Assembly (NCBI GenBank): GCA_963708135.1
Contig: OY970192.1
Coordinates: 1,344,001-1,408,000, forward strand
Length of the DNA stretch: 64,000 nt
Reading direction: 5' to 3'
From: an uncultured Gemmatimonadales bacterium
GTDB taxonomy: Bacteria; Gemmatimonadota; Gemmatimonadetes; Longimicrobiales; RSA9
Shown here: in pieces, positions 1 through 15,572 of the stretch
Position numbering within the stretch: the stretch's first letter is position 1
Layout: every line of letters begins with the position of its first letter
Program-made: the position numbers and the translations under genes
The notes under the pieces: model-generated
The model's input: only the letters and a program-made list of their open reading frames with translations
Database searches by the model: none
What the model was told of the DNA's origin: nothing

Positions 1-826
1 GCTCCGGGTGCCGGGCACGGCGAAGTCGCTCCTGGAGGCCCAGGCGGAGGGGGCGCACATCGACGTCGTCTACGGCGCGGCGCAGGCGGTGGAGCTGGCG
101 CGCGGGACGAGCGAGGAGGTGGTCTTCTTCGCGACTGGCTTCGAGACGACGGCGGTCGCGACCGCGGCGCTCGTGCTCTCGGACCCTCCGCCGAACTTCT
201 CGGTGCTCTCGGCGCACAAGTACATCCCGCCGGCGATGGAGATCGTGGCGGAAATGCCCGAGAGCCGGGTGGAGGGGTTTCTGGCCGCGGGGCACGCGGC
301 CGCGATCACGGGCTGGGGGATCTTCGAGCGGTTCGTGGAGCGCCACGGCATTCCCGTGGTGGTGGCCGGCTTCGAGCCGCTGGACATCCTGGCCGGGCTT
401 GTCCAGCTGGTGGAGCTCATCCGCGACGGCAGGGCGGAGGTCCGCAACGCCTTCCCGCGCTGCGTGACGAAGCAGGGCAACGTCAACGCGCAGCGGCAGC
501 TCTGGCAGGTGTTCCGTTCGACGGGCGGACAGTGGCGCGGCATCGCGCACGTGCCGAACGGCAACCTTCGCCTGAGGGATGCCTACGCGCAGCTGGACGC
601 GCGTCGCCGCTTCGACATCGACCTGCGCCGGTTCTGGAGCATGGCGCCGCCGGCGCTCACGCAGACGTGCATCTGCGGGGACATCATGGCAGGGACCCGC
701 TCTCCGTCGGACTGCCCGCTGTTCGGCAAGGAGTGCGTGCCGGACGCGCCCGTGGGCGCCTGCATGGTGAGCAGCGAAGGCACGTGCCGCATCTGGCACC
801 AGTACGGGGGGCATCCGAAGCTATGA
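1..826 (+). CDS. hypD: Hydrogenase maturation protein HypD (5' end outside the window)
   Basis: LRVPG at the window edge, GFETT motif, C-terminal CxC...C...C...GACMVSSEGTC. The frame is open to the window start. Confidence 0.95.
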   Translation, partial: LRVPGTAKSLLEAQAEGAHIDVVYGAAQAVELARGTSEEVVFFATGFETTAVATAALVLSDPPPNFSVLSAHKYIPPAMEIVAEMPESRVEGFLAAGHAAAITGWGIFERFVERHGIPVVVAGFEPLDILAGLVQLVELIRDGRAEVRNAFPRCVTKQGNVNAQRQLWQVFRSTGGQWRGIAHVPNGNLRLRDAYAQLDARRRFDIDLRRFWSMAPPALTQTCICGDIMAGTRSPSDCPLFGKECVPDAPVGACMVSSEGTCRIWHQYGGHPKL

Positions 827-1878
827 GCGCGACCGACGCCTGTGTGGTGACGCTGGGCCGCGAGGAGCGCGTGCTGATGAAGCATGGCGCCGGCGGGCGG
901 GCAATGCGGCGGCTGATCGAGAGCACGCTGACGCCGCAGTTCATCGGGCAGCCTGTGGACGGAGTGGGTCTCGCCGCGTTCGACGACGGCGCCGCCCTGC
1001 GGATCGGCGACCAGTGGCTGGTGGTCACCACGGATTCGCACGTGGTGCAGCCGATCTTCTTCCCGGGCGGCGACATCGGGCGCCTCTCGGTCTCCGGCAC
1101 TGTGAACGATCTCGCGATGATGGGGGCGGTCGAGCCGCTCGGCATCACGTGCGCGCTGATCGTCGAGGAGGGCTTCCCGATGGCGGACCTCGAGCGGATC
1201 CACCGCTCCATGGCGGCGGCGTGCGAGGAAGCCGGCGCCGCGATCGTCACCGGCGACACGAAGGTGATGGGGAGGGGCGAGCTGGACGGGGTCGTCCTGA
1301 ACACCACCGGCGTGGCGCTGACGCGGCGCTACATCCCCGACGCCGGCCTGCGGCCGGGGGATCGGATCCTCGTGACGGGCACGATCGGGGACCATGGCAT
1401 CGCGCTGATGGCTGCGCGCAAGGGGTTCGGTCTCGATGCCGACCTCGTTTCCGACGTCGCCCCGATCAACGGGCTGATCCGGGCCGCCCTCGAGGCCGCC
1501 GGCGATGCCGTCACGGCCATGAAGGATCCCACGCGGGGCGGCGTGGCCAGCGCGCTCCACGAGATGGCGCAGAAATCCGGAGTCGGCATCGTGGTGGACG
1601 AGGCGGCGGTGCCCGTGAGCGGCGTCGTGGCGGCGGCCGCCGAGATGCTGGGGCTCGACCCGCTCCAGATCGCGAACGAGGGCAAGGCGGTGCTGGGCGT
1701 TCGCGCCGACGCGGCCGAGCGCGTGCTGACGGCGCTGCGCGCCCATCCCCTCGGCGCCAACGCGGCGATTATCGGCTCGTGCACGACGGAGCACGCCGGT
1801 CAGCTGGTGCTGGACACCGGGTTCGGCCGCCGGCTCCTCTCGGAGCCCGAGGGCGAGCCGCTCCCTCGCATCTGCTGA
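823..1878 (+). CDS. hypE: Hydrogenase maturation carbamoyl dehydratase HypE
   Basis: HGAGG, TTDSHVVQPIFFPGGDIG, GTVNDLAMMGA, KDPTRGG, C-terminal PRIC. ATGA overlap with the hypD stop. Confidence 0.97.
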   Translation: MSATDACVVTLGREERVLMKHGAGGRAMRRLIESTLTPQFIGQPVDGVGLAAFDDGAALRIGDQWLVVTTDSHVVQPIFFPGGDIGRLSVSGTVNDLAMMGAVEPLGITCALIVEEGFPMADLERIHRSMAAACEEAGAAIVTGDTKVMGRGELDGVVLNTTGVALTRRYIPDAGLRPGDRILVTGTIGDHGIALMAARKGFGLDADLVSDVAPINGLIRAALEAAGDAVTAMKDPTRGGVASALHEMAQKSGVGIVVDEAAVPVSGVVAAAAEMLGLDPLQIANEGKAVLGVRADAAERVLTALRAHPLGANAAIIGSCTTEHAGQLVLDTGFGRRLLSEPEGEPLPRIC

Positions 1879-2679: not shown

Positions 2680-3510
2680 ATGCCGAACATCCGCGTCGAG
2701 CACGACGGCGCCGTCGGCATCCTCACCATCGCCCGCCGGGAGCGCTTCAACTCCCTCGACGTCAGGACCGCGCAGGACTTCCGGCGCGCCGGCATCCAGC
2801 TCGCGCGGGATTCGGCGGTCCGGTGCGTGGTGCTGCGGGGCGAGGGCGGCGTGTTCTGCAGCGGTGCGGACCTGAAGTACATACGGGAGCGCGGCGAGGC
2901 CTCCGACTTCTCCTACCTCCAGCCGGAAGGTGGTGCGCCGGCAAAGGGTTACGGCGAGAGCTTCAAGCAGATTCTCGAGTACATCCACAGCACGATCTCC
3001 GAGATCGAGCGGGCCCCGAAACCCTTTATCGCGGCGGTGGATGGCATCGCCGCGGCCGGGGGGTTCGGCATCGCCATGGCGTGCGATCTCGTCTTTGCCT
3101 CCCGGAGCGCGGCCTTCGAGTGGGCCTACCATAAGACGGGCCTCACGGGCGCGGAGAGCTCGACCTTCTTCCTTCCGCGTCTGGTCGGTCTGCGGCAGGC
3201 GCTCGAGCTGGTCCTCCTCAATCCGCGGCTCGACGCGGAGGAAGCATTGCGCCGCGGCCTGATCACGGGCGTGCTCGAGGACGACGGCTTCCACGAGGCG
3301 GTGCTCGCGGTGGCGCGCCGGCTCGCCGAGGGGCCGACGGAGGCGTACGGCATCGCGAAGTCGCTGATCCACCGGGCGGCGGGCGTGGAGCAGCTCGACT
3401 ATCACCTGGACGAGGAGCTGCGGAGTCTGGCGCGGATCGCGGAGGGGCGTGACTTCGCCGAAGGGCTGGAGGCGTTCTTCGGGAAGCGGAAGCCGGACTT
3501 CGGCGGCTAG
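2680..3510 (+). CDS. Enoyl-CoA hydratase/isomerase (crotonase) fold protein (candidate HypX C-terminal half)
   Basis: FCSGADL oxyanion motif, PKPFIAAVDGIAAAGG, LPRLVG, C-terminal F..KRKP. ATG at 2680 after a GAGGGG RBS. Confidence 0.9.
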   Translation: MPNIRVEHDGAVGILTIARRERFNSLDVRTAQDFRRAGIQLARDSAVRCVVLRGEGGVFCSGADLKYIRERGEASDFSYLQPEGGAPAKGYGESFKQILEYIHSTISEIERAPKPFIAAVDGIAAAGGFGIAMACDLVFASRSAAFEWAYHKTGLTGAESSTFFLPRLVGLRQALELVLLNPRLDAEEALRRGLITGVLEDDGFHEAVLAVARRLAEGPTEAYGIAKSLIHRAAGVEQLDYHLDEELRSLARIAEGRDFAEGLEAFFGKRKPDFGG

Positions 3511-3514
3511 CGGC

Positions 3515-5839
3515 TCACTGCCGCGCCTTCGCATACGCCACCACGGCCTGGCCGAGTGCCAGGCCGCCGTCGTTTGGCGGGACGAGCCGGTGCGTGTAGA
3601 CCTCGAAGCCGGCCGCGCCGAGTCGCTCGCTCAGCCGGTCCGTCAGGAGCGCGCTCTGGAAGCAGCCGCCGCTCAGGCACACCCGCTCGATTCCGGTCGC
3701 ATGCCCCACGAGCGTGCAGAGGCGGGCGGTCGCGGCGGCGACCGTGTTGTGGAACGCGCCGGCGATCGCGGACACCGGCACCCCGGCGCGGTGGTCCTGC
3801 CACAAGGCCCGCAGCGTCGGCGCCGGATCCAGGACGTGCACACCGCCATCGGCGGTCAGGATGTCGAAGGGGTAGACGACATCGCATGCCGCATCCGCCA
3901 CAGCCTCGAGCCGGACCGCCGGCTCTCCCTCGTACGCGGCCCGGGTGCAGACGCCCAGCAGCGCGGAGACGGCGTCGAAGAGGCGCCCGCAGGACGAGGT
4001 CATCGGCGAGTTCAGGCGCAGCTCCAGCTGCCGCCGCAGCACCTGCCGCTCGAGGCCCGCGAAGCGCTCGAAGAACGGCTCCAGCCGCTCCTCCGCCTCC
4101 GGCAGCATCTCCCACAGATACGCGGCGGCCATGCGGTCGGGGCGCCGGATCGCGGCCTCGCCGCCGAGCATCGGCACGGTCCGCAGGTGCGCCGCGCGCC
4201 TGAAGTCGGACCAGTCGGCCACGAGCACCTCGCCGCCCCACACCGTGCCGTCGGTGCCGTAGCCCGTCCCGTCGTACGCCACGCCGATGACGGGACCGAC
4301 CAGCCCGTTCTCCGCCATGCACGCCGCGATGTGCGCGTGGTGGTGCTGAACGGCGACGCGCAGCTCGCCGTCGGACGCGAGGCGCGCCGCGAGCAGGGTT
4401 GACATGTAGTCGGGGTGCATGTCGTGCGCGATGATACGCGGGTGGACGCGGAAGAGGTCGCGGTAGAGCTCGAGCGAGCCCGTGAAGTGCTCCAGGGTCT
4501 CGAGGTTCTCGAGGTCGCCGATGTGCTGGCTGAGAAACGCCTTGGACCCCTTCACGAGGCAGAAGGCGCTCTTCTGCTGGCCTCCGCACGCCAGGATGTC
4601 CGCGGCCGCGGAGAAGGGAAGGTCCACGGGCGCGGGCGCGAGCCCCCGCGAGCGCCGGATCGGCGTCGGCGTCTCGCCGAGCACGCGCACGACGGAGTCG
4701 TCGTAGCGCGCGCGGATGTCGCGGTCGTGGAGCAGGAAGGCGTCCGCCACGTCGGAGAGGCGGTCGAGCGCCTCCGCGTTCCCGATGGCGATCGGCTCCT
4801 CGCTCAGATTGCCGCTCGTCATGACCAGCGGCCCGTCGAAGGCCGCGACCAGCAGATGGTGGAGCGGCGTGTAGGGCAGCATGAGCCCGACCGTATCGAG
4901 GCCGGGCGCGACGGCCGGGGCAAGGCCCGAATCGGCACGGGCACGGACGAGCACGATCGGGCGCTCCCGCGAGCAGAGCACCGCCGCCTCGACGCCGGTG
5001 AGCTCCGCCACCCGTTCCGCCTGCAGCCGGTCGGCGACCATGACGGCCAGCGGCTTGCCGTAGCGGTGCTTCCGCTCCCGCAGCCGGGAGACCGCCGCCT
5101 CGTCCCGGGCATCGCAGGCGAGGTGGAAGCCGCCGAGCCCCTTCAGCGCGACGACGGCGCCCTCGCGCAGCAGCGCGGCGGCACCCGCGATCGGATCGCC
5201 CTCCGGTGCGGGCCGTCCCGGCGCGTGGAGCCAGACCTTCGGCCCGCACGTCGGGCAGGCGACCGGCTGCGCGTGGAAGCGTCGGTCGCGCGGGTCCTCG
5301 TATTCGCGCCGGCACGCCTCGCACAGCGCGAACTCTCGCATGGTCGTGCGCGCCCGGTCGTAGGGCATGCTCTCGATGATCGTGAAGCGAGGCCCGCAGT
5401 GCGTGCAGTTGATGAAGGGATAGAGGTAGCGGCGGTCGGCGGGGTCGAAGAGCTCGCGCAGGCAGTCGTCGCACGTCGCCACGTCGGGCGAGATGTTCTG
5501 CCAGCCGAAGTCCTGCCTGCTGGTGCGGATCTCGAAGGTTTCGAACCCCTCCGGCTCGTGCGGCTCGGCCACCACGGTCTCGATGCGGGCGAGCGGCGGG
5601 GGATCGCGGCGGAGATCCTGGAGGAACGTCTCGAGCGAGGGCGCGGCCCCCTCCACGTGGATCTCGACGAGCTCGGCCGTGTTGCGGACCCAGCCGCTCA
5701 GGGCGTGCTCCTCCGCGAGGCGGAAGACGAACGGGCGGAAGCCGACCCCCTGTACGGTGCCCGTGATCCGGACGCGCAGCCCCGAGAGCGGAGCCGATCC
5801 ACGACGGGTGCCGCCCTCGGCGGCGCGCGTTCGGTGCAC
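3515..5839 (-). CDS. hypF: Carbamoyltransferase HypF
   Basis: Acylphosphatase domain GTVQGVGFRPFV, two zinc-finger CxxC pairs, KGLGGFHLACDA, QHHHAH, PPNDGGLALGQ. Start uncertain (GTG 5839; ORF open to 5896). Confidence 0.96.
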   Translation of the reverse strand: MHRTRAAEGGTRRGSAPLSGLRVRITGTVQGVGFRPFVFRLAEEHALSGWVRNTAELVEIHVEGAAPSLETFLQDLRRDPPPLARIETVVAEPHEPEGFETFEIRTSRQDFGWQNISPDVATCDDCLRELFDPADRRYLYPFINCTHCGPRFTIIESMPYDRARTTMREFALCEACRREYEDPRDRRFHAQPVACPTCGPKVWLHAPGRPAPEGDPIAGAAALLREGAVVALKGLGGFHLACDARDEAAVSRLRERKHRYGKPLAVMVADRLQAERVAELTGVEAAVLCSRERPIVLVRARADSGLAPAVAPGLDTVGLMLPYTPLHHLLVAAFDGPLVMTSGNLSEEPIAIGNAEALDRLSDVADAFLLHDRDIRARYDDSVVRVLGETPTPIRRSRGLAPAPVDLPFSAAADILACGGQQKSAFCLVKGSKAFLSQHIGDLENLETLEHFTGSLELYRDLFRVHPRIIAHDMHPDYMSTLLAARLASDGELRVAVQHHHAHIAACMAENGLVGPVIGVAYDGTGYGTDGTVWGGEVLVADWSDFRRAAHLRTVPMLGGEAAIRRPDRMAAAYLWEMLPEAEERLEPFFERFAGLERQVLRRQLELRLNSPMTSSCGRLFDAVSALLGVCTRAAYEGEPAVRLEAVADAACDVVYPFDILTADGGVHVLDPAPTLRALWQDHRAGVPVSAIAGAFHNTVAAATARLCTLVGHATGIERVCLSGGCFQSALLTDRLSERLGAAGFEVYTHRLVPPNDGGLALGQAVVAYAKARQ

Positions 5840-5844
5840 GGCCC

Positions 5845-6522
5845 TCAGCCCGTCACGACGCGCGTTCTGACCTGCGTACGCAGGAAATCGTACCATTCCT
5901 CCAGCCCCGCGCCGGTGAGCGCGGAGGTGAAGAAGAAGCGCAGGTCCGGGTTGATCTCGCGCGCGAACGCCACGGCCTTGTCCATATCGTAGGGCAGGTA
6001 CGGTAGCAGATCGATCTTGTTGATGATGGCGTAGCGCGCCCGGCGAAACATCGACGGGTACTTGAGCGGCTTGTCCTCGCCCTCCGTGACGGACAGGACG
6101 ACGACCTTCGAGTCCTCCCCCAGATCCCAGCTCGCGGGGCAGACCAGGTTGCCGACGTTCTCGATGAAGAGCAGTCCGGTCTCATCGAGGTCGATGGCCT
6201 CGAGAGCCGTGGCCACCTGGCGCGCGTCGAGATGGCACGCTCCGCCGGTCACGACCGCCTGAACCAGGCGCTCCGTGTGCCGGGCCAGCCGGTCCGCGTC
6301 GTTCTGCGTCTGCACGTCCCCCGTCACCACCGCCGCGCGAAGCTCCGTGCCGACATCGGCCAGCGTCCGCTCCAGCAGCGCGGTTTTCCCGGACCCCGGC
6401 GAGGAAACCAGGTTGAAGGTGGTGACGCCGGCATCGGCAAGGCGACGGCGCACGTCCCGCGCGATCTCGTCGTTCTTCGCCAGGACCCGCTCCCTCACCT
6501 CAATCGTCCGGACCGCCATCAT
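5845..6522 (-). CDS. hypB: Hydrogenase nickel incorporation GTPase HypB
   Basis: SSPGSGKT, CHLDA, ENVGNLVCPA, EGEDKPLKYP, NKIDL. Confidence 0.97.
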   Translation of the reverse strand: MMAVRTIEVRERVLAKNDEIARDVRRRLADAGVTTFNLVSSPGSGKTALLERTLADVGTELRAAVVTGDVQTQNDADRLARHTERLVQAVVTGGACHLDARQVATALEAIDLDETGLLFIENVGNLVCPASWDLGEDSKVVVLSVTEGEDKPLKYPSMFRRARYAIINKIDLLPYLPYDMDKAVAFAREINPDLRFFFTSALTGAGLEEWYDFLRTQVRTRVVTG

Positions 6523-6760
6523 CCACCTCCAGGTAGCTCACGCGCAGCACGTCACCCGGCAGCCGCAGCAGCACCGGGCGTGCCGCCACAAAGGGCGGCT
6601 GCGTCAGCAGCGCGTCGAGACAGAACTCCAGGTTCTCGGCCTCGAGGCCCGCGTCATCACCGACCTCGACCCCGACTTCCACCACCGACGGGAGCGTCGC
6701 GAGGCCGACCTGCTCCTCCACGATGCGGCAGACCTCCATCGCGACGCTCATCTCATGCAT
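6500..6760 (-). CDS. hypA: Nickel metallochaperone HypA, short form without zinc finger
   Basis: N-terminal MHEMS Ni-binding motif, LEFC, C-terminal LRVSYLEVD. Lies between the protease and hypB with overlapping start/stop codons. Confidence 0.85.
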   Translation of the reverse strand: MHEMSVAMEVCRIVEEQVGLATLPSVVEVGVEVGDDAGLEAENLEFCLDALLTQPPFVAARPVLLRLPGDVLRVSYLEVDDGGPDD

Positions 6761-7265
6761 ACGCCCGCTCCCGGAGGCGCCGCAACGCATGGCCCTCCCC
6801 GCGCAGCCGCTCGGCCACGGCCTCGACCAGCGCCGGCAGGCCGCGCTCCAGAACCGGGCTCAGCTCGACCTGCATCTCCAGGACTGCGGGCTGCAGGCCC
6901 ATGGCCGCGGTGCGGGCAGGGAGGGTGCCGCGCCACTCCGCCAGCGCCAGCACCTCGCGCAGGTCGATCTGGTGCGGCGAGAGCTTGTGGCCGAAGTAGC
7001 GTGGGATCTCCTCGCGCTCGAGCACGATCTGCGTGCCCGGCGCGGTCCGCAGGTCGATCGCGTCGAGGAAGAGCAGGCTCTCCGCCTCCTCGATCATCGG
7101 CAGCAGGTTCATCCCCCAGGTCCCGCCATCGAGCACCTCGACCGTGGACGGCAGCTCCCAGTCCTGAACGAGACGGGCCAGGGCGGCAAGCCCCAGCCCG
7201 TCGTCGCCCATGAGCGGGTTGCCCAGGCCGATCACCGTGATCCGGCCCGGGCTTGCCTCAGTCAT
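6753..7265 (-). CDS. Hydrogenase maturation endopeptidase (HyaD/HybD family)
   Basis: GLGNPLMGDDGLG, DGGTWG, LDAID, SPHQ. Confidence 0.95.
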   Translation of the reverse strand: MTEASPGRITVIGLGNPLMGDDGLGLAALARLVQDWELPSTVEVLDGGTWGMNLLPMIEEAESLLFLDAIDLRTAPGTQIVLEREEIPRYFGHKLSPHQIDLREVLALAEWRGTLPARTAAMGLQPAVLEMQVELSPVLERGLPALVEAVAERLRGEGHALRRLRERAYA

Positions 7266-8004
7266 CCGTGTACTCCCGGTCCTCCGGTACGAACCGGCCA
7301 CCGCTGATGATCGAGGAGATCGTGCCCGTGCGTTCCACGACCTCCGCCCGCAGCGCCAGGTAGACGTGGATCGGAATGAAGATCAGGAAGACCCACGTCA
7401 GCACGTGGTGCACGAACCGCACGACCTGCATCCCGCCGAACAGCGGGCCCACCCAGTTGAACAGGTGGAAGAACAGCCCGTTCGGGTTCGACTGGCCGTA
7501 CATGGCGAACCCCGTCACCACCATGATCGCCGCCAGCAGATAGATGCCCGTATACGAGAGCTGCTGCAGCGGGTTGTGCCCGAGGTAGTGCGGCTCATCG
7601 TGATCGATCAGCAGGTAGTAGCGCGCCATCTTGACGAGGTTCTTCCAGTCCCGCCCGCGCACCGGGAAGAGCGCTCTCCAGCGCTCGAACTTGTTCCCCG
7701 CGAACAGCCAATAGAACCGCAGGATGGCTGTGGCCACGAGCACGCCCGCCGCGCTGAAGTGGACCAGCCGCACCCAGCCCATCATGAAGTGCTCGCTCGC
7801 GGCACCGCTCGGGAAGAAGTACGGCCTCCCGATGTAGAAGCCGGTCACCGCGAGCGTCAGGATGCAGCCGACGGCGATCCAGTGCATCGCGCGGATCGGC
7901 CACTGCCACAGGTAGACCCAGCGATACTCCCCGCTCGGCGGAGGGACCGGGTGCGCGATTCCTCGCGCACCCGGCTCGGCGATCGTCTGCTCGAGCTTCG
8001 TCAT
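7258..8004 (-). CDS. hyaC: Ni/Fe-hydrogenase b-type cytochrome subunit
   Basis: VYLWQWPIRAMHW, RLVHF, GHNPLQQLSY, HHVLTW...HVY. Four TM helices with heme His residues. Confidence 0.94.
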   Translation of the reverse strand: MTKLEQTIAEPGARGIAHPVPPPSGEYRWVYLWQWPIRAMHWIAVGCILTLAVTGFYIGRPYFFPSGAASEHFMMGWVRLVHFSAAGVLVATAILRFYWLFAGNKFERWRALFPVRGRDWKNLVKMARYYLLIDHDEPHYLGHNPLQQLSYTGIYLLAAIMVVTGFAMYGQSNPNGLFFHLFNWVGPLFGGMQVVRFVHHVLTWVFLIFIPIHVYLALRAEVVERTGTISSIISGGRFVPEDREYTDD

Positions 8005-9716
8005 AGCACCTTCACCTCCGTGACGACGGCGCCCTGTGCGTCGAGCACGTGCACTCCGCAGGCGATGCACGGGTCGAAGGAGTGGACCGTGCGCAGGATC
8101 TCCAGCGGCTGGTCCGGCTTGACGAGCGGGTGGTTGTCCATGAGCGACAGCTCGTACGGCCCCGCCTGCCCCTTCGGATCCCGCGGCGACGCGTTCCACG
8201 TCGTCGGCACGACGCATTGGTAGCGCGAGATCTTGCCGTCCTTGATCTGCACCCAGTGCCCGAGCGCGCCGCGCGGCGCGTCCAGGTAACCGTAGCCCTG
8301 CGCCGTGGCCGGCCATGAGCTCGGATCCCACTTCGACGCGTCGAACGTCTTGGTGTCCCCGCTCTTGATCCGGTCCACCAGCTCGCCGTACCACTTGTTC
8401 ATGCGCCGCGCGAGCACGACGGTCTCGATGGCACGTGCGGCCGTTCGTCCTAGCGTCGAGAAGAGCGCCTCCGGCCCCACCTGCAGCTTGGTGAGTGCGG
8501 CATTCGTGAGTTCCTTCACCTCGGGATGCCCGACCGCATAGGCGACCAGCATGCGCGCCAGCGGACCAACCTCCATCACCTGCCCGTCGTAGCGCGGCGC
8601 CTTCATCCACGTGTACTTCTTCTCGTCCTGCAGGTAGGTCCACGGTGTGGGCGGGCCCGTGTACTTCGGCGTCGTCTCGCCCTCGTAGGGGTGCAGCCCG
8701 ACGTCTTCGCCGCCGCTGTACTCGTACCACGCGCTCGTGACGTACTCCTTCACCTTGTTCTGGTCGTACTCCACGATCTTGGAGAGGTCGCGGTTCAGGA
8801 TGATGCCCCGCGGCAGGTAGAGCGACTTCGGATCGTTGATGCTGCCCTCGGGGAACTCGCCGACCGACAGGTAGTTCTTGGCACCCCCGCCGATCGATGC
8901 CCACTCCTTGTAGAAGCCGGCGATGGCAACCAGGTCCGGCCAGTAGACCTCCTCGACGAAGCGCTGCGCCTTCTGGATCATGCCCTGTACGTCTGTCAGC
9001 CGTGCCGCGTTGATCGTCGCCGTGTCGTTCAGGTTGATGGCCGAGGCCATCCCGCCCACCAGGAAATTCGGGTGCGGGTTCTTGCCGCCGAAGATGGTAT
9101 GCAGCCGGATTACGTCCTTCTGCCAGTCCAGGGCCTCCAGGTAGTGCGCCGTGGCGAGGAGGTTCACCTCGGGCGGCAGCTTGTAGGCCGGATGACCCCA
9201 GTAGCCGTTGGCGAAGATCCCGAGCTGCCCGCTCGCGACGAACGTCTTCAGCCTGTTCTGCACCTCCGCGAAATAGGTCGCGGAGTTGTTCGGCCACGGC
9301 GAGATCGACTTGGCGATCGCCGACGTCTTGACCGGGTCCGCGGACAGCGCGCTCACCACGTCCACCCAGTCCAGCGCATGCAGGTGGTAGAAGTGGATCA
9401 CATGGTCCTGAATGAACTGCATACCGTGTACGAGGTTGCGGATCAGGTTGGCGTTCGGCGGGATCTCGATGCCGAGCGCATCCTCCACGGCCCGGCACGA
9501 CGCCACCGCGTGCACGACCGTGCACACGCCGCAGATGCGCTGCGTGAACGCCCACGCATCCCGCGGGTCGCGGTCCTGCAGGATCGTCTCGATCCCGCGG
9601 AACTGCGTGGACGACGCCCAGGCGTTCGCGATCTTCCCGTTCTCGGCCTGGGCCTCGATCCGGAGGTGCCCCTCGATGCGGGTGATCGGATCGACGACGA
9701 CCTTAGTTCTCGCCAT
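8001..9716 (-). CDS. hyaB: Group 1 membrane-bound [NiFe]-hydrogenase large subunit
   Basis: DPITRIEGH, L1 QRICGVCTVVH, L2 SFDPCIACGVH followed by a cleavable C-terminal extension. Confidence 0.97.
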   Translation of the reverse strand: MARTKVVVDPITRIEGHLRIEAQAENGKIANAWASSTQFRGIETILQDRDPRDAWAFTQRICGVCTVVHAVASCRAVEDALGIEIPPNANLIRNLVHGMQFIQDHVIHFYHLHALDWVDVVSALSADPVKTSAIAKSISPWPNNSATYFAEVQNRLKTFVASGQLGIFANGYWGHPAYKLPPEVNLLATAHYLEALDWQKDVIRLHTIFGGKNPHPNFLVGGMASAINLNDTATINAARLTDVQGMIQKAQRFVEEVYWPDLVAIAGFYKEWASIGGGAKNYLSVGEFPEGSINDPKSLYLPRGIILNRDLSKIVEYDQNKVKEYVTSAWYEYSGGEDVGLHPYEGETTPKYTGPPTPWTYLQDEKKYTWMKAPRYDGQVMEVGPLARMLVAYAVGHPEVKELTNAALTKLQVGPEALFSTLGRTAARAIETVVLARRMNKWYGELVDRIKSGDTKTFDASKWDPSSWPATAQGYGYLDAPRGALGHWVQIKDGKISRYQCVVPTTWNASPRDPKGQAGPYELSLMDNHPLVKPDQPLEILRTVHSFDPCIACGVHVLDAQGAVVTEVKVL

Positions 9717-10860
9717 GCGGCACCTCCTCGCCCTTCGGAGCCTGATTCAGTATCGGAAGCTCGCCACGCCGCTTCTCGCGCGTCCGCTGGATCCCCGTCG
9801 CCGCCGCGTGCGCGGCTACGCCCGCCGTCGCGCCGATCGCCAGAGCGGCGCCCAGCGTGTCCGCGAAGCTCTCCACGCCGAGTCCCGCCACGTCCGGGAG
9901 GCGCCCGTAGAACGGCGTCATCGTGTCCCAGAAGTGCGGCTCGGTGCAGCCGATGCAGGGATGCCCCGCGCCGATCGGCCAGCTCGTGCGCGTGTTCCAC
10001 TGGAAGATCGGGCAGGGCGAGAACGTCGCCGGCCCCTTGCAGCCCACCTTGTACAGGCACCAGCCCTTGCGCGCTGCGTCATCGTCGAACGCCTCGACGT
10101 ACTGCCCGGCGTCGAAGTTGGCCCGCCGCGGGCACTGGTCGTGGATCCGCGCCCCGTACGCGAAGAGCGGCCGCCCCTGGCCATCCAGCTCCGGCAGCCG
10201 GTTGAAGGTGAGGAAGTGCACGACCGTCGCCGTCACGACATCCGCGATCGGTGGACAGCCCGCAATGTTTACCACCGGCTTGTCCTTGACGATGTCCTGC
10301 ACGCCCACGGCGCCTGTCGGATTCGGCCGGGCCGCCTGGACGCTGCCCCAGTGCGCGCACGCGCCCACCGCCACCACCGCCGCGGCTCCCGCCGCCGCCT
10401 CCTTGAGCAGGTCCTCGGCCGTGCGCCCCCCGATCGTCGTGTAGATCCCGTTCTCCTTCGTCGGGATCGACCCCGTCACGATCAGGATGTAGCCCCCCTT
10501 GTTCGCCTCCATCGACTTCATCATCGCGCCGTCCGCCTGCAGCCCGGCCGCCGCCATGATCGTCTCCTGGTAGTCCAGCGAAATGACGTCCAGCACCAGG
10601 TCACCGATCGTCGGCGCATCCGACCGCAGCACGCTCTCCGTGCACCCGGTGCACTCCTGCAGGGACAGCCAGATGACGGTCGGGCGCTTCACCGCGGCCA
10701 GCGCACGCGCCATCTTCGGCGTGGCCAGCTCGCTCAGCCCGAGGATCACCGCGAACTCCCCGCAGAACGCGAGAAAGTCCCGTCGGCTTACGCCCCGCTT
10801 CTTGAGGTAGGCGCCCAGGGTTTCCCCTTCGGCCCACGGCTCGGGGTTCGGGAAGTACAT
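9703..10860 (-). CDS. hyaA: Group 1 [NiFe]-hydrogenase small subunit with Tat signal and C-terminal membrane anchor
   Basis: SRRDFL Tat motif, ECTGCTES, GCPP, HDQCPRR, CLYKVGCKGP, HPCIGC, hydrophobic C-terminal helix. Confidence 0.97.
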   Translation of the reverse strand: MYFPNPEPWAEGETLGAYLKKRGVSRRDFLAFCGEFAVILGLSELATPKMARALAAVKRPTVIWLSLQECTGCTESVLRSDAPTIGDLVLDVISLDYQETIMAAAGLQADGAMMKSMEANKGGYILIVTGSIPTKENGIYTTIGGRTAEDLLKEAAAGAAAVVAVGACAHWGSVQAARPNPTGAVGVQDIVKDKPVVNIAGCPPIADVVTATVVHFLTFNRLPELDGQGRPLFAYGARIHDQCPRRANFDAGQYVEAFDDDAARKGWCLYKVGCKGPATFSPCPIFQWNTRTSWPIGAGHPCIGCTEPHFWDTMTPFYGRLPDVAGLGVESFADTLGAALAIGATAGVAAHAAATGIQRTREKRRGELPILNQAPKGEEVPHGEN

Positions 10861-10884: not shown

Positions 10885-11211
10885 TCAGGGAAGGAACTTC
10901 AGGACCGTCTGCCCGCCTGCCTGCGCCACGCGCACCGCCTCATCCCGGCCCCCGGCGCCCGACAGCACGTCCACCGCCGTGGGCGCGCTCACGCTTCTCG
11001 TCAGGTGCGCCTCCACGCTCGCCAGCGCCCCCAGCATGATCTCCACGCGGTCATCCCGCGGATCGTACGCGACCCCGCGCAGCGCCAGCCCGTGTACCTC
11101 CTCCTGCGCGCCCACCTCGGGGTCGTCCACCTCGAGGAACGTGCGCCGGCCCGCGTTGCGCTTCGTGAACTCCTCCAGCTCTCTCCGCCACATTGCCGTT
11201 TCGGCCCTCAT
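10885..11211 (-). CDS. DUF5335-like small protein
   Basis: W..L..FT..N.GR...LEV...GAQEE..GL.LRG..YD pattern. Ends 24 bp upstream of the small-subunit start. Confidence 0.7.
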   Translation of the reverse strand: MRAETAMWRRELEEFTKRNAGRRTFLEVDDPEVGAQEEVHGLALRGVAYDPRDDRVEIMLGALASVEAHLTRSVSAPTAVDVLSGAGGRDEAVRVAQAGGQTVLKFLP

Positions 11212-11660
11212 GGCCCGACTCCCGTTGGGGGGGTGCGGAGCATTCTCCCTGAACAACGCGTACCAATCCGCGACGCGCCCGGAGGCCTGCCCAGATTCGC
11301 GGGAAACCCGCGCCGTTACGCGAAAAGTGATCTGCCCGGCCCGCGTCCTCGCCGCGCCGGGGACATTCGGCCTCACGCCATCCTGTCCCAGGGCTGGGGC
11401 GGTGTGACCAAAGGCGACCCGGGCGCGGGCGGACGCGCGCCGGCCCCCGATTGGGACTAAGTGTCCGCAGCCGCCGTGGCGGGGCGCCGGCCGACGCCTC
11501 GCGCGCAACCTCGTAACCGTTGGCGCTGGCAGGGAATGCGGCAGGGGGACCTCGCGCGCCGCGTCGGGGCATGCATCTCGTACCAATGCGCGGCGGGGGT
11601 GCCGGCGCGAAGTGGCGCCTCGCTCCCCGGAGCGAACGGATCATGGGCAAGGAGGAGCAG

Positions 11661-12608
11661 ATGTCCACGATGGAGCTCCTGGCCGCAGAAGCGGCGGTCG
11701 CGGCGGAGCCGCCGGCCCTCCCGGAGGTGGCGGTGGGGCACGTGCTCGTGGGCAGCGACGGGTCGGCGGCGGCGGAGGCCGCGCTGCGCGTTGCGGCGGC
11801 GCTCTCGACCGAGCGCGGCGCGGAGATCGAGGTGCTCACGGTGCTCGAGCCGCTGCCGGTGTACGAGGGCGGCTACGTCCCGGCGTTGCCGTACGGCGAG
11901 ATCGATGAAGCCCGCGAGCGGGAGCGGAGCGCGCGGGTGCGGAAGCAGCTCCTGGCCCTCGGCGAGGTGGACTCCGACTGGCCGCTGGAGCTCGGGCGCG
12001 GGCGGGCCGCGGAGACGTTGGCGGCGCGGGCGGTGGCTTCCGGCGCGCGTCTGGTGGTGGTCGGGATCGGCCGGCACCGGCCGGTGGATCGGCTCCTGGG
12101 AAGCGAGACGGCGCTGCAGCTGGTGCGGCGCTCGCCGGTCCCCGTCCTGGCGGTGCACCCGTCCGCGCCAGCGCTTCCTCGGCGCGTGCTGGTCGGGACG
12201 GACTTCAGCGCGTCGAGCGGTCGCGCGCTGCGAGTCGCGCTGTCCCTGATGGGCGCGGGGGGCGAGCTCGACGTGGTGCACGTTCAGCCGGCGGTCGAGC
12301 TGCCGGGAGAGGCGGAACGGGACTGGACGGTGGGCTATGCCCGCGAGATCGACGCGCAGTTCGCTCGCCTTCTCGCCAGCCTGCAACTGCCGCGCGGGGT
12401 GCGGGTGCGTACCGAGCGGGTGGAGGGAGATCCAGCCGCACAGCTGATGGCCCATGCCGAGCGGATGGGCGCGGACCTCGTGGCGGTCGGCAGCCATGGC
12501 CGCTCGTACCTCGAGCGGCTGCTCGTGGGAAGCGTCGCCACCCGGGTGCTGCGCTCCTCGCACACGTCCGTGCTCGTAGCCCCGCCGGAGGTCGCGCCCG
12601 CGGCGTGA
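11661..12608 (+). CDS. Universal stress protein, tandem USP domains
   Basis: VLVGSDGS, LLGSETA, VLVGTDFS, GSHGRS...LVGSVATRVL. GGAGGAG RBS before ATG 11661. Confidence 0.93.
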   Translation: MSTMELLAAEAAVAAEPPALPEVAVGHVLVGSDGSAAAEAALRVAAALSTERGAEIEVLTVLEPLPVYEGGYVPALPYGEIDEARERERSARVRKQLLALGEVDSDWPLELGRGRAAETLAARAVASGARLVVVGIGRHRPVDRLLGSETALQLVRRSPVPVLAVHPSAPALPRRVLVGTDFSASSGRALRVALSLMGAGGELDVVHVQPAVELPGEAERDWTVGYAREIDAQFARLLASLQLPRGVRVRTERVEGDPAAQLMAHAERMGADLVAVGSHGRSYLERLLVGSVATRVLRSSHTSVLVAPPEVAPAA

Positions 12609-12640: not shown

Positions 12641-12847
12641 TCAGCGCTCGTCTTCGGCCGCCCGGTTGAGCGCGCCCAGGAGCGTGATGGCGTCCGCGCC
12701 GTCGCGCTCCGCCGCCTGCGCGATGCTGGCTTCGCCGCCGCAGCACGCGTCGATTCCGAACTGGTTGAAGATCGCCACCGTGTCCGGGAACAGGCGGATC
12801 GCCTTGTTCACCGACATCGTGGGCGGGATCAGGATCTGGACCTCCAT
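12641..12847 (-). CDS. Stand-alone ScdA_N/DUF542 domain protein
   Basis: FPDTVAIFNQFGIDACCGG motif of the RIC/ScdA N-terminal domain. GGAGGAG RBS. Confidence 0.8.
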   Translation of the reverse strand: MEVQILIPPTMSVNKAIRLFPDTVAIFNQFGIDACCGGEASIAQAAERDGADAITLLGALNRAAEDER

Positions 12848-12908
12848 CAGCTCCTCCTCCGCTCGCGAGCGGCAGGTGTAGGAATTTCGTTGCACGCGAC
12901 GACCCCCT

Positions 12909-13403
12909 TCAGCCACCCCTCGCCAGCCGCACGGCGGCGATGACCAGCACCAGCCCGACCACCACGTTGATGCGCGCCGTCCACGCCGCCTGCCGCCGCA
13001 GCGCCTGCGCCCGGGCCGAGCCCGGCTGCAGCGCCGAGGCCGCCGGGCCGATCGCGAAATCGTGGACCGCCTGCGCCACGAGCATCACGAGGACGCAGCC
13101 CAGCTTCCAGGCGAGCGCGGTCCCGAAAGGCGTGCCCCAGAACCGCGTCGAGCCGAGCACGCTCCAGGACAGCACGCCGCGGAAGTAGAGGTTCCCCACG
13201 CCCGTCACCAGCAGCACCGCGAGCGCGCTCCAGCCCGCGACCCGGAACTGGCGCCCGAGCCTGCGGAACAACTCCGCCCGCAGCGCCGGCGGCTCGACCG
13301 CCCGCAGCACCGGGGCGCCCACGACGGCGAGGAAGAAGATCCCGCCCAGCCAGAACAGCGCGGCCAGCACGTGCAGCGTCACGTTCAGGTAGTACGGCGA
13401 CAC
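12909..13403 (-). CDS. CopD/DUF4149-like four-TM membrane protein
   Basis: LHVLAALFWLGG, L..KL..V, HDF..GP. Confidence 0.75.
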   Translation of the reverse strand: MSPYYLNVTLHVLAALFWLGGIFFLAVVGAPVLRAVEPPALRAELFRRLGRQFRVAGWSALAVLLVTGVGNLYFRGVLSWSVLGSTRFWGTPFGTALAWKLGCVLVMLVAQAVHDFAIGPAASALQPGSARAQALRRQAAWTARINVVVGLVLVIAAVRLARGG

Positions 13404-14195: not shown

Positions 14196-14420
14196 CTTCA
14201 CGCACGGACCGCCGCGGAGGCCCCCCGGCCGCCGTGCCCGCGCCCGGCTCACGACAGCCTCGCCGGGAGAAGCCGGTCTCCACACCGTCATCCAGAGCGG
14301 GTCCAGGAGCGACGCGAGATCCCCTCGGCCCGTCCGACCCGGCCTGAGCGGCCGCGGGTCGTTGCGCGATTGCAGGAGGCCCGGCGCCGGCCGGGCGCTC
14401 TCACCGAAGCAACGGAGGCG

Positions 14421-15095
14421 ATGATGGCGGAGCCGTTGACCAAGCTGGAGCGGCGGATCCTGGACTACCTCGTCGATTATCTCCGTCGCAACACCTACCA
14501 GCCGTCCATCCGCGAGATCGGGCGGCGGTTCGACATCAAGAGCACGAAGACGGTCTCCGAGTACCTGCAGGCGCTGGCGGACAAGGGGTGGATCGAGCGC
14601 GACCCGTCGCGCTCGCGCGGCGTTAAGCTGCTCGGCCTGGACCTCCACCCGCAGACGGTGACGGTCCCGCTCTACGCCGCCCATGCCGGCGGTGACGGGG
14701 CGGGGGGTCCGGGGGCGCTGGACGAGCTCGAGCTCGACCGCAGGCTGGCCGGCTCGACCGGCACGTTCTGCGTCGTCATGCGGGGTGACGCGCTGGAGGA
14801 TGCGGGCATCCGCAGCGGGGATCTGCTGCTGGTCGAGCCGGTGGCGCGCGAGGAACTGGAGGACGGCGATGTGGCCGTCCTGCGGATCGCCGGCGAGCTG
14901 GGCGTGCGGCGCTGCTCCCGGCGCGACGGGGCGGTGGTGCTGGAGGCGGCCCGGGCGGGGCAGCCGGGCACGCTGGTTCAGCGCTCCGCGGAGACGACGG
15001 TGCTCGGGCGGGCGACGGGCGTGCTCCGGCGCCTGCGCCAGCCGCTGGCCGCGTCGCCCGCGTCGCCCGTCGCCGGCGCGGAGGCGCCTCGCTGA
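14421..15095 (+). CDS. lexA: LexA-family repressor with degenerate S24 peptidase site
   Basis: N-terminal wHTH PSIREIG...L..L..KGWI.R..SRSR. S24-like C-terminus with GDAL in place of GDSM. Confidence 0.85.
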   Translation: MMAEPLTKLERRILDYLVDYLRRNTYQPSIREIGRRFDIKSTKTVSEYLQALADKGWIERDPSRSRGVKLLGLDLHPQTVTVPLYAAHAGGDGAGGPGALDELELDRRLAGSTGTFCVVMRGDALEDAGIRSGDLLLVEPVAREELEDGDVAVLRIAGELGVRRCSRRDGAVVLEAARAGQPGTLVQRSAETTVLGRATGVLRRLRQPLAASPASPVAGAEAPR

Positions 15096-15098
15096 CGC

Positions 15099-15572
15099 GT
15101 GCTGTGCCTCCCCGAGGCGCCGCTCCCGGAGGATGCGGCGTGGATGCGGCGGGCGCTGGAGGAGGCCCGTACGGCCGCCGTGGCGGATGAGGTGCCGGTC
15201 GGCGCCGTGCTCGTGGCGGATGGACGGGTGCTGGCGGCGGCACACAACCGGACGCGCACCCGTAACGATCCCACCGCGCACGCCGAGATGGAGGTGATGC
15301 GTCGTGCCGGCGAGGTGCTCGGCGGGTGGCGCCTCCTGGAGGCCACGCTCTACGTCACGCTGGAGCCGTGCGCAATGTGCGCCGGCGCGCTCGTGCTCGC
15401 CCGCATTCCCCGCCTCGTCTACGCCGCGCCGGACCCGAAGGCCGGCATGTGCGGCTCCCTCGGCTGCATCATCCAGGACGCGCGGCTCAACCATGGCGTC
15501 CGCCTCACAGCCGGCGTTCTTGCCGAGGAGGCCGGCGCGCTCCTGCGGGACTTCTTCCGGGCGCGGCGCTGA
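15099..15572 (+). CDS. tadA: tRNA adenosine(34) deaminase TadA
   Basis: EVPVGAV, DPTAHAE, TLEPCAMCAGA, DPKAG. Confidence 0.93.
   Translation: MLCLPEAPLPEDAAWMRRALEEARTAAVADEVPVGAVLVADGRVLAAAHNRTRTRNDPTAHAEMEVMRRAGEVLGGWRLLEATLYVTLEPCAMCAGALVLARIPRLVYAAPDPKAGMCGSLGCIIQDARLNHGVRLTAGVLAEEAGALLRDFFRARR

Follow-up and report, generated by a model that had tools for sequence, protein, structure and literature searches.

Where does the carbon monoxide (CO) ligand of [NiFe] hydrogenases come from in bacteria that possess no HypX? No other enzyme is known so far to make this ligand. A 2025 review names HypX as the only aerobic source of CO, and lists a CO source without HypX as a main open question (PMC12134894). 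The question is raised again by a stretch of 64,000 nucleotides from an uncultured Gemmatimonadales bacterium (hereafter the window; positions 1,344,001–1,408,000 of a single-contig genome of 5.45 Mb), which has a G+C content of 72% and carries a complete [NiFe]-hydrogenase system within its first 11 kb. Among the genes of this system we find one for a crotonase of 276 amino acids, P0004 (2680..3510, + strand). P0004 belongs to a distinct and strongly conserved crotonase family that is part of the [NiFe]-hydrogenase maturation (hyp) operons. We predict that it acts by itself as a formyl-coenzyme A (formyl-CoA) decarbonylase and that, among free-standing proteins, it is the closest kin of the HypX C-terminal domain and not one half of a split hypX gene; we put the probability of this reading at roughly 0.6. 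The protein probably makes the hydrogenase CO ligand in bacteria without HypX.

It is the gene context that bears most of the weight for a HypX-like role. Close homologues of P0004 abound: of 8000 proteins scored, 5244 reach E <= 1e-20. Among the 120 matches listed, identities range from 72 to 79% and several proteins carry the automatic name PaaG isomerase given by the Joint Genome Institute (JGI), and the close homologues bear Gemmatimonadales labels. A locus scan that took one genome per species yielded 80 loci with crotonases of 64–77% identity, labelled as Gemmatimonadota, Acidobacteriota, Myxococcota, Methylomirabilota/Rokubacteria, Binatia, Nitrospirota, Chloroflexota, Melainabacteria, and Pseudomonadota. 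Neighbours at these loci were counted by tblastn with the proteins of the window (E <= 1e-8). A hypE gene lies within 3 kb of the crotonase in 77 of the 80 loci, and in the three others the crotonase sits at a contig end; hypD is found near the crotonase in 74 loci, hypF in 62, hypB in 61, the hydrogenase large subunit in 49, and a formyltransferase in 31. P0004 thus shares with HypX the membership of a hyp operon beside hypE, and in Cupriavidus necator pHG1 hypX directly follows hypE, in the same place as the crotonase. When 251 genomes of the phylum of the window were sampled, 11 contained the crotonase (E <= 1e-70) and 102 contained hypE, a count that includes one genome flagged as unpublished (G162). 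All 11 carriers are among the 102; the crotonase thus travels with one kind of hyp operon.

The same genomes were searched for the fused HypX protein. There was no match in the 251 genomes of the phylum at E <= 1e-20, in a search with a single proteobacterial query and without a positive control in that set, and none in the genome of the window or in five other carrier genomes. Several long, apparently fused representatives of the crotonase (P0135, P0142, P0184, P0190, and others) show only partial crotonase matches; they are probably frameshifted metagenome open reading frames (ORFs) and were left unused. Another metagenome protein of 345 amino acids, P0138, joins a partial crotonase of the family to a HypA domain, probably because a frameshift has run neighbouring crotonase and hypA genes together.

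The sequence of P0004 itself departs from that of the better known crotonases. The domain PF00378 (E 1.2e-44) covers its residues 9–275 with profile positions 3–249 of 251, which makes it a member of the crotonase superfamily. The protein contains ...FEWAYHKTGLTGAESSTFFLPRLVG..., and codons 3127–3189 on the + strand encode exactly the catalytic loop YHKTGLTGAESSTFFLPRLVG, with Tyr150 (TAC, 3127–3129), Gly157 (3148–3150), Ala158 (3151–3153), and Glu159 (GAG, 3154–3156). A canonical paralogue from the same genome (L009) reads ALGGGLELALAC ... FGLPEVKLG and has both hydratase glutamates, of which the first aligns with Gly130 of P0004 (IAAAGGFGIAMAC; 3067..3069, + strand) and the second with Tyr150. 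Both hydratase glutamates are therefore replaced, and P0004 lacks the Glu of GGGxE and of PExxxG by which a canonical enoyl-CoA hydratase is recognized. In this respect the original prediction, made from the DNA letters alone, was right: it had placed the Tyr and the Glu at these codons and had noted that the first crotonase Glu is missing, and both the translation and the alignment with the paralogue agree with it. The combination of Tyr and Glu at positions 150 and 159 is found in none of the seven same-genome paralogues examined (the genome has nine crotonase matches in total, P0004 included). PaaG (PDB 4fzw_C), the best PDB sequence match of P0004 (E 2.5e-36), reads AFSKLGLIPDCGG, and its catalytic Asp aligns with Ala158. 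The Asp of the GL-x-P-D motif is thus replaced as well, the PaaG model TIGR02280 gives 161.9 bits against a cut-off of 345.15, and P0004 stays below the cut-off of all 25 NCBIfam models among the matches listed (74 models matched).

These replacements are fixed throughout the family. Our alignment has 75 rows, that is 72 complete crotonases from the 80 loci and three protein rows, the eight incomplete ones being omitted, and its mean column identity is 78% across phyla. All 75 rows agree in Tyr150, Ala158, and Glu159, and also in Gly130 at the first hydratase Glu position; the invariance of the first three in several phyla places the pattern beyond chance. Also invariant are the oxyanion-hole motif, the CoA-site motif, and the entire loop FEWAY-x-KTGLTGAESSTF.

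The known protein that these positions call to mind is HypX, and the original prediction had named Tyr416 and Glu426 of Aquifex HypX as residues proposed for formyl-CoA decarbonylation. This is indeed what is printed in PMC6802093, where the two residues lie near the CoA thiol, are put forward as candidate base in the reaction, and correspond to Tyr439 and Glu449 of R. eutropha, mutations of which give a HypX-minus phenotype. We took C. necator HypX (P0006) from pHG1, which aligns over its full length with Aquifex HypX (PDB 6j0p, E 2.1e-166); the former reads HYKNMGNLYGSEYWTYLLPQRVG and the latter hyknignlygsefwtytlpkrvg at the loop. The alignment to HypX C-domains that the prediction had proposed as a check came out in its favour. 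BLASTP of P0004 against the HypX C-domain (28% identity over 228 residues, pairwise E 5e-10) pairs Tyr150 with Tyr439 and Glu159 with Glu449, at the cost of one gap after Gly154, and hhalign of the 75 family rows against 111 HypX C-domains returns the same register (probability 99.1%, E 1.9e-18, 27% identity). Tyr439 and Glu449 are invariant in all 111 of these C-domains. By alignment, and with one gap, Tyr150 and Glu159 would thus be the equivalents of the catalytic Tyr and Glu of HypX. The match of the pattern Y-x3-GL-x-G-x-E to HypX, which had been claimed outright, holds after a one-residue gap following the Gly; the HypX motif had been given one residue short, as real HypX has an extra residue between Gly and Leu.

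Kinship with the HypX C-domain was approached by profiles, trees, and structure. A hidden Markov model (HMM) of the HypX C-domain scores the family at a median of 55.6 bits versus 37.2 for its nearest relatives, and 69 of the top 76 sequences belong to the family, although related sequences are treated here as independent and the rank test thus overstates the difference. With the HypX C-domain as the query, the best match is the hyp-linked crotonase in five of six carrier genomes. In maximum likelihood trees (LG+C20 with posterior mean site frequencies, PMSF), the HypX C-domains fall inside the family clade when all columns are used, with an SH-like approximate likelihood ratio (SH-aLRT) of 98. 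When the columns of the catalytic loop and of AAAGG are removed, in a subset of 14 of 76 family rows, 30 of 108 relatives, and 8 of 111 HypX sequences, a clade of family and HypX is recovered with an ultrafast bootstrap (UFboot) of 96 and an SH-aLRT of 91, the bootstrap not being fully settled. An AlphaFold2 (AF2) model of P0004, with a mean predicted local distance difference test (pLDDT) of 83.2, superposes as a whole domain on residues 286–544 of Aquifex HypX at Z 29.3–29.8 with a root-mean-square deviation of 2.3–2.5 Å over 249–252 residues. Aquifex HypX ranks 5–14 among 1000 crotonase-fold chains, tied with many, and the top chain is 3p5m_B (Z 33.1); the model matches 1000/1000 of these Foldseek-selected chains at Z >= 8. 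We favour the family, short of proof, as the best candidate for a free-standing sister or ancestor-like form of the HypX C-domain.

A number of findings weigh against the decarbonylase reading, and the first of them concern the very residues on which it was founded. We read 150 representatives of crotonase clusters formed at 50% identity, of which 143 cover both positions. Tyr stands at position 150 in 111 of the 143, including 85 outside the family, and is present in 74% of the nearest non-family relatives. Two Tyr-bearing crotonases, one of Haloterrigena and one of a Roseomonas plasmid, have no hyp gene in the annotated surroundings shown, and the Haloterrigena gene is accompanied by acyl-CoA dehydrogenase, thiolase, and CoA-transferase genes of a fatty-acid-type cluster. 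The Tyr is thereby ruled out as a signature of HypX; it characterizes a broader branch of crotonases and alone is hardly informative. The claim of residue-level support independent of gene context has to be given up in that form. Tyr together with Glu159 occurs in 26 of the 143 representatives, and all 26 are family members. The other 85 Tyr-bearers read F-x-x-A-Y-x-x-x-G-L-x-P-D-G-G, and a PaaG-type Asp occupies position 158 in 106 of the 143. Where the relatives have G-L-x-P-D-G, the family has G-L-x-G-A-E, and HypX has L-Y-G-S-E.

What is left of the context-independent support can be stated precisely. The family has 98 positions conserved to at least 95%. At four of them its residue is the one invariant in HypX and occurs in fewer than 10% of the nearest non-hyp relatives: Ala126 (HypX Ala415), Gly157 (Gly447), Glu159 (Glu449), and Leu247 (Leu541), three of which lie around the thioester site. 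Ala126 (3055..3057, + strand) is replaced by Gly in 96% of the nearest non-hyp relatives. A constant offset of 23 equates its counterpart Ala415 with Aquifex Ala392, and in the HypX variant A392F-I419F of PMC6802093 it is this residue and a second one of the cavity that are mutated. Since the Tyr is not specific to HypX, the support shrinks to the loop change P157G / D158A / G159E together with G126A, which is suggestive and, taken by itself, insufficient. The closest outgroup in the trees is formed by crotonases reading FEYGYPR[IL]GLPGDGG, namely the one on a Haloterrigena plasmid (L097:6974-7774) and P0185, P0153, and P0197. With the hyp family they have in common the F-E-x-x-Y start and Gly157, but they retain Asp158, and their loop may be in an intermediate state.

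Further points on the same side come from the comparison with HypX as a whole. The distance from Tyr to Glu is 10 in HypX versus 9 in P0004. A set of 109 non-family relatives aligns equally well to the HypX C-domain (probability 99.2%, E 2.7e-19, 21% identity), and the family is far closer to its PaaG-like relatives (hhalign E 1e-95, 40% identity) than to the HypX C-domain. Glu147, Trp148, Thr153, and an insert with Tyr79, Leu80, Glu100, and Tyr101 are invariants specific to the family that have no counterpart in HypX. In the trees the HypX stem is very long, with 4.2 changes per site, and the approximately unbiased (AU) test fails to reject a position of HypX outside the whole set (difference in log-likelihood 6.3, p 0.337). 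None of the HypX sequences used falls below 61% identity to the protein of C. necator, so that the HypX profile is a narrow one, and the catalytic loop of the AF2 model (residues 151–170) is of low confidence, with a pLDDT of 59–71. Finally, 91 of the 102 hypE-positive genomes of the phylum have neither the crotonase nor a HypX match, hence the crotonase is not generally required.

The heaviest of the difficulties is posed by the formyltransferase. In the window the gene of a PurN-type formyltransferase of 255 amino acids, P0002 (1889..2656, + strand; PF00551, E 8.8e-19), directly precedes the crotonase. Its best PDB matches are PurN proteins (3p9x, E 8.9e-16), with no HypX among its PDB matches at E 0.01, and it falls below the cut-off of the PurN model TIGR00639 (E 2.5e-21; 76.1 bits, cut-off 150.1). 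Across 22 orthologues His127, Asp130, and Asp171 never vary, and Asn125 is kept in 90% or more. The protein has an eight-residue insert after the His motif, its invariant Asp130 stands three residues past the catalytic His, and it bears a conserved C-terminal extension AYAYAHREWMMR..WGPL, a block that PurN does not have. Its hhalign match to the HypX N-domain is weak (probability 53.7%) and out of register at the His motif. The affinity to PurN and this weak match indicate that P0002 was recruited separately and did not arise by detachment from hypX. We considered and rejected a split hypX gene, as the formyltransferase is of PurN type, its alignment to the HypX N-domain is weak, and the crotonase is nearer to free-standing crotonases. 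Complex prediction for crotonase and formyltransferase gave a score of 0.00, which counts neither for nor against binding. At several Thermoanaerobaculia loci the match to P0002 begins at residue 83 and the ORFs span 180–209 amino acids (orthologues in L052, L074, L075, and L082); these could be shortened forms or have mis-set starts.

The formyltransferase is absent from 49 of the 80 crotonase loci. Of the 73 rows of the crotonase tree, 28 have the gene, 41 lack it, and 4 are undetermined, a distribution that needs at least 14 changes; carriers and non-carriers occur side by side in both Gemmatimonadota (13 and 8) and Acidobacteriota (12 and 11). In three genomes without a copy at the locus, none was found elsewhere (0/3), the only matches being at housekeeping level (E 1e-15 to 1e-6); in two genomes with the locus formyltransferase the matches there reach E 1e-52 to 1e-55, and in the genomes checked it is found only at hyp loci. 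To see whether some other conserved gene might furnish formyl-CoA at loci lacking the formyltransferase, we clustered 1136 crude ORFs (filtered by G+C at third codon positions, GC3) from the 80 loci and matched 17 cluster representatives to Pfam. The recurrent clusters were hyp genes, hydrogenase subunits, and unrelated neighbours (sensor kinases, P-type ATPase, DnaJ, cytochrome b, and others), and no supplier was seen among them, though such crude gene calling may miss small or atypical genes. An extra 1.9 kb between hypE and crotonase at one locus (L054, a Thermoanaerobaculia chromosome) was inspected for a formyltransferase and instead holds an IS481-type transposase with rve and HTH domains (8208-9479); the crotonase frame there is intact. 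Such a patchy partner, absent from most loci, implies either that formyl-CoA has another source there or that the substrate is a different one. The supply of formyl-CoA where the formyltransferase is missing is the main weakness of the decarbonylase reading and the ground of its main rival.

If P0004 is a formyl-CoA decarbonylase, the pathway might be as follows. P0002 would transfer the formyl group from N10-formyl-tetrahydrofolate to CoA to give formyl-CoA, which would be bound by P0004 in the crotonase oxyanion hole, where Tyr150 and Glu159 could act as the base, directly or through water, to release CoA-SH and CO. The CO would then pass to the HypC-HypD scaffold and become part of the Fe(CN)2CO unit, destined for the cytochrome-b-linked group 1 hydrogenase whose genes lie alongside. 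The substrate, the CO release, and the delivery to HypCD are steps that we infer. Together, P0002 and P0004 would perform the activity of the fused HypX, and the formyltransferase beside the crotonase in 31 of the 80 loci would recreate its pair of domains; at the loci without it, formyl-CoA would have to come from elsewhere in metabolism. This last point leads to a bolder and more tentative proposal, which we regard as possible but would not expect to hold: the stand-alone crotonase may be the ancestral, minimal synthase of the CO ligand, working on free formyl-CoA from general metabolism and independent of folate in most carriers, with the supply improved twice in evolution, once by recruitment of a PurN-type enzyme and once by fusion with an Fmt-type enzyme to give HypX.

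Among the rival explanations, the one that survives best accepts P0004 as a true hydrogenase-maturation factor and gives it another thioester of CoA or of a carrier, for example a different C1 or C2 precursor of the CO ligand, or else a hydrolysis or decarboxylation that would feed HypCD, with the formyltransferase as an optional addition. It would account for the formyltransferase missing at 49 loci, and throughout the genome in the three such genomes checked, for the lack of any other conserved candidate for forming formyl-CoA among the recurrent gene clusters, and for the family-specific invariants without HypX counterpart described above. It is countered by the fact that the only family-distinguishing residues matching a known enzyme are those of HypX, and that the partner gene, when there is one, is always a formyltransferase, which points to formyl chemistry; we consider this rival rather unlikely. 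Crotonase-fold proteins with non-enzymatic roles exist, and P0004 has lost the canonical catalytic acids, hence it could be imagined as a non-catalytic, CoA-binding scaffold, chaperone, or regulator of the Hyp machinery. Nevertheless the invariant oxyanion-hole and CoA-site motifs, the invariant loop, and the high column identity of the family speak for catalysis, and make this role very improbable. Least credible of all is the view that P0004 serves the catabolism of aromatics or fatty acids as a common enoyl-CoA isomerase or hydratase of PaaG-like type and only happens to have hyp genes as neighbours, for although the best PDB match and the JGI names point to PaaG and the nearest relatives share 40% identity and the Tyr, both hydratase Glu and the PaaG Asp are replaced, the TIGR02280 score is less than half its cut-off, the Pfam matches of the window proteins include no paa or beta-oxidation gene flanking P0004, and linkage to hypE across phyla, with every carrier in the phylum hypE-positive, is not expected of a catabolic gene.

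The gene cluster around P0004 begins with hypD, whose 5' part is cut off by the start of the window (1..826, + strand; PF01924, E 4e-91, profile positions 88–351), and hypE (796..1878, + strand, start approximate; TIGR02124, 386.5 bits, cut-off 251.6), followed by the formyltransferase and the crotonase. The four genes are co-directional, with gaps of 10 nt between hypE and formyltransferase and 23 nt between formyltransferase and crotonase. Convergent with the crotonase lies hypF (3515..5896; TIGR00143, 842.9 bits, cut-off 466.1), and further on the − strand come hypB (5845..6522; PF02492, E 2.6e-22), hypA (6500..6790; PF01155, E 2.9e-09), a hydrogenase maturation endopeptidase (6753..7301; PF01750, E 3.4e-25), a Ni/Fe-hydrogenase b-type cytochrome subunit (7258..7998; TIGR02125, 194 bits, cut-off 121.5), the [NiFe] hydrogenase large subunit of the group 1 membrane-bound uptake type (8001..9716; PF00374, E 5.1e-238), and the small subunit (9703..10860; TIGR00391, 456.3 bits). 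The best PDB match of the large subunit is the membrane-bound enzyme of Allochromatium (3myr_B, E 1.4e-240). The small subunit carries the signal SRRDFL of the twin-arginine translocation (Tat) type and contains ECTGCTES, presumably the proximal-cluster motif in the standard four-cysteine form and not the six-cysteine form of the O2-tolerant group 1d enzymes. Such a standard form would contrast with carriers that are mostly labelled as aerobic soil phyla.

The genome contains a second hyp/hydrogenase set outside the window (3017269-3021508; loci L094 and L095), with a large subunit of group 1h type (5aa5_C, 1023.7 bits) and a second hypE (E 1.2e-122). The crotonase of the window is the only strong match to the hyp-linked crotonase in the genome, thus it accompanies only the cytochrome-b-linked enzyme. 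A third, weak and split match to a [NiFe] large subunit is located at 3668242-3669402 (L096; E 8.2e-14 and 6.1e-9) in an open frame of 691 amino acids, and could be a HupK/HoxV-like or a group 3/4 protein. Just beyond the small-subunit gene of the window are a gene for a DUF5335 protein (10885-11586, − strand) and one for a tandem universal stress protein (11520-12608, + strand), which are divergent and overlap at their 5' ends, so that one of the starts is probably wrong. A ScdA_N/DUF542-like gene and a CopD-like membrane gene are also present in the window (region 12641-13403, − strand). A LexA-type repressor gene (14370-15095, + strand) is directly followed by a gene for a deaminase of the cytidine/tRNA-adenosine type (15099-15572, + strand). 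All four genes are ordinary and have no bearing on the crotonase.

Why the family matters is easily stated. It offers a simple and testable candidate for the enzyme of the CO ligand in abundant phyla of soil and sediment, in whose searched genomes no HypX was found. It presents the decarbonylase half apart from the formyl-transfer half, in a small protein suited to tests of the Tyr/Glu chemistry and of the use of free formyl-CoA, and it suggests how HypX arose; were the ancestral-synthase proposal true, there would be a folate-independent route to the hydrogenase CO ligand. Public annotation as PaaG or enoyl-CoA hydratase has hidden the family from hydrogenase surveys. In the literature searched, with subscription papers on HypX biochemistry outside its scope, we came across no HypX-like system that stands alone or consists of two genes, and no paper that pairs HypX with a Gemmatimonad.

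The two proteins can be compared with known systems. Like PurN, P0002 keeps the Asn-x-His ... Asp catalytic set, and unlike PurN it scores below the cut-off and has the insert at the His motif and the C-terminal extension. P0004 resembles PaaG (1,2-epoxyphenylacetyl-CoA isomerase) and the F-x-x-A-Y...GL-x-P-D-G-G crotonases in being without both hydratase glutamates and in having a Tyr (a Phe in PaaG) at the second Glu position, but the Asp of the P-D motif has become Ala158 with the acid moved one position to Glu159, and its context is one of hyp genes, not of paa or beta-oxidation genes. HypX/HoxX, for its part, is a fusion of N10-formyl-tetrahydrofolate:CoA formyltransferase and formyl-CoA decarbonylase (C. 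necator pHG1; Aquifex aeolicus, PDB 6J0P), which makes the CO ligand under air; PMC6802093 describes a tethering of CoA between its two domains. Unlike HypX, P0004 is a single-domain protein and not the C-terminal half of a fusion of about 580–600 amino acids, it is 27–28% identical to that half with a Tyr–Glu spacing one residue shorter, and it has no HypX C-terminal tail, since the hhalign match stops at column 247 of the 298-residue C-domain query; its partner formyltransferase is separate and of PurN type as against the Fmt/FDH-type N-domain of HypX, and the tethering between domains cannot apply as such to separate P0002 and P0004. Like HypX, however, P0004 has the crotonase fold, the aligned Tyr and Glu, the matches at Gly157 and Ala126, a position after hypE, and often a formyltransferase at its side.

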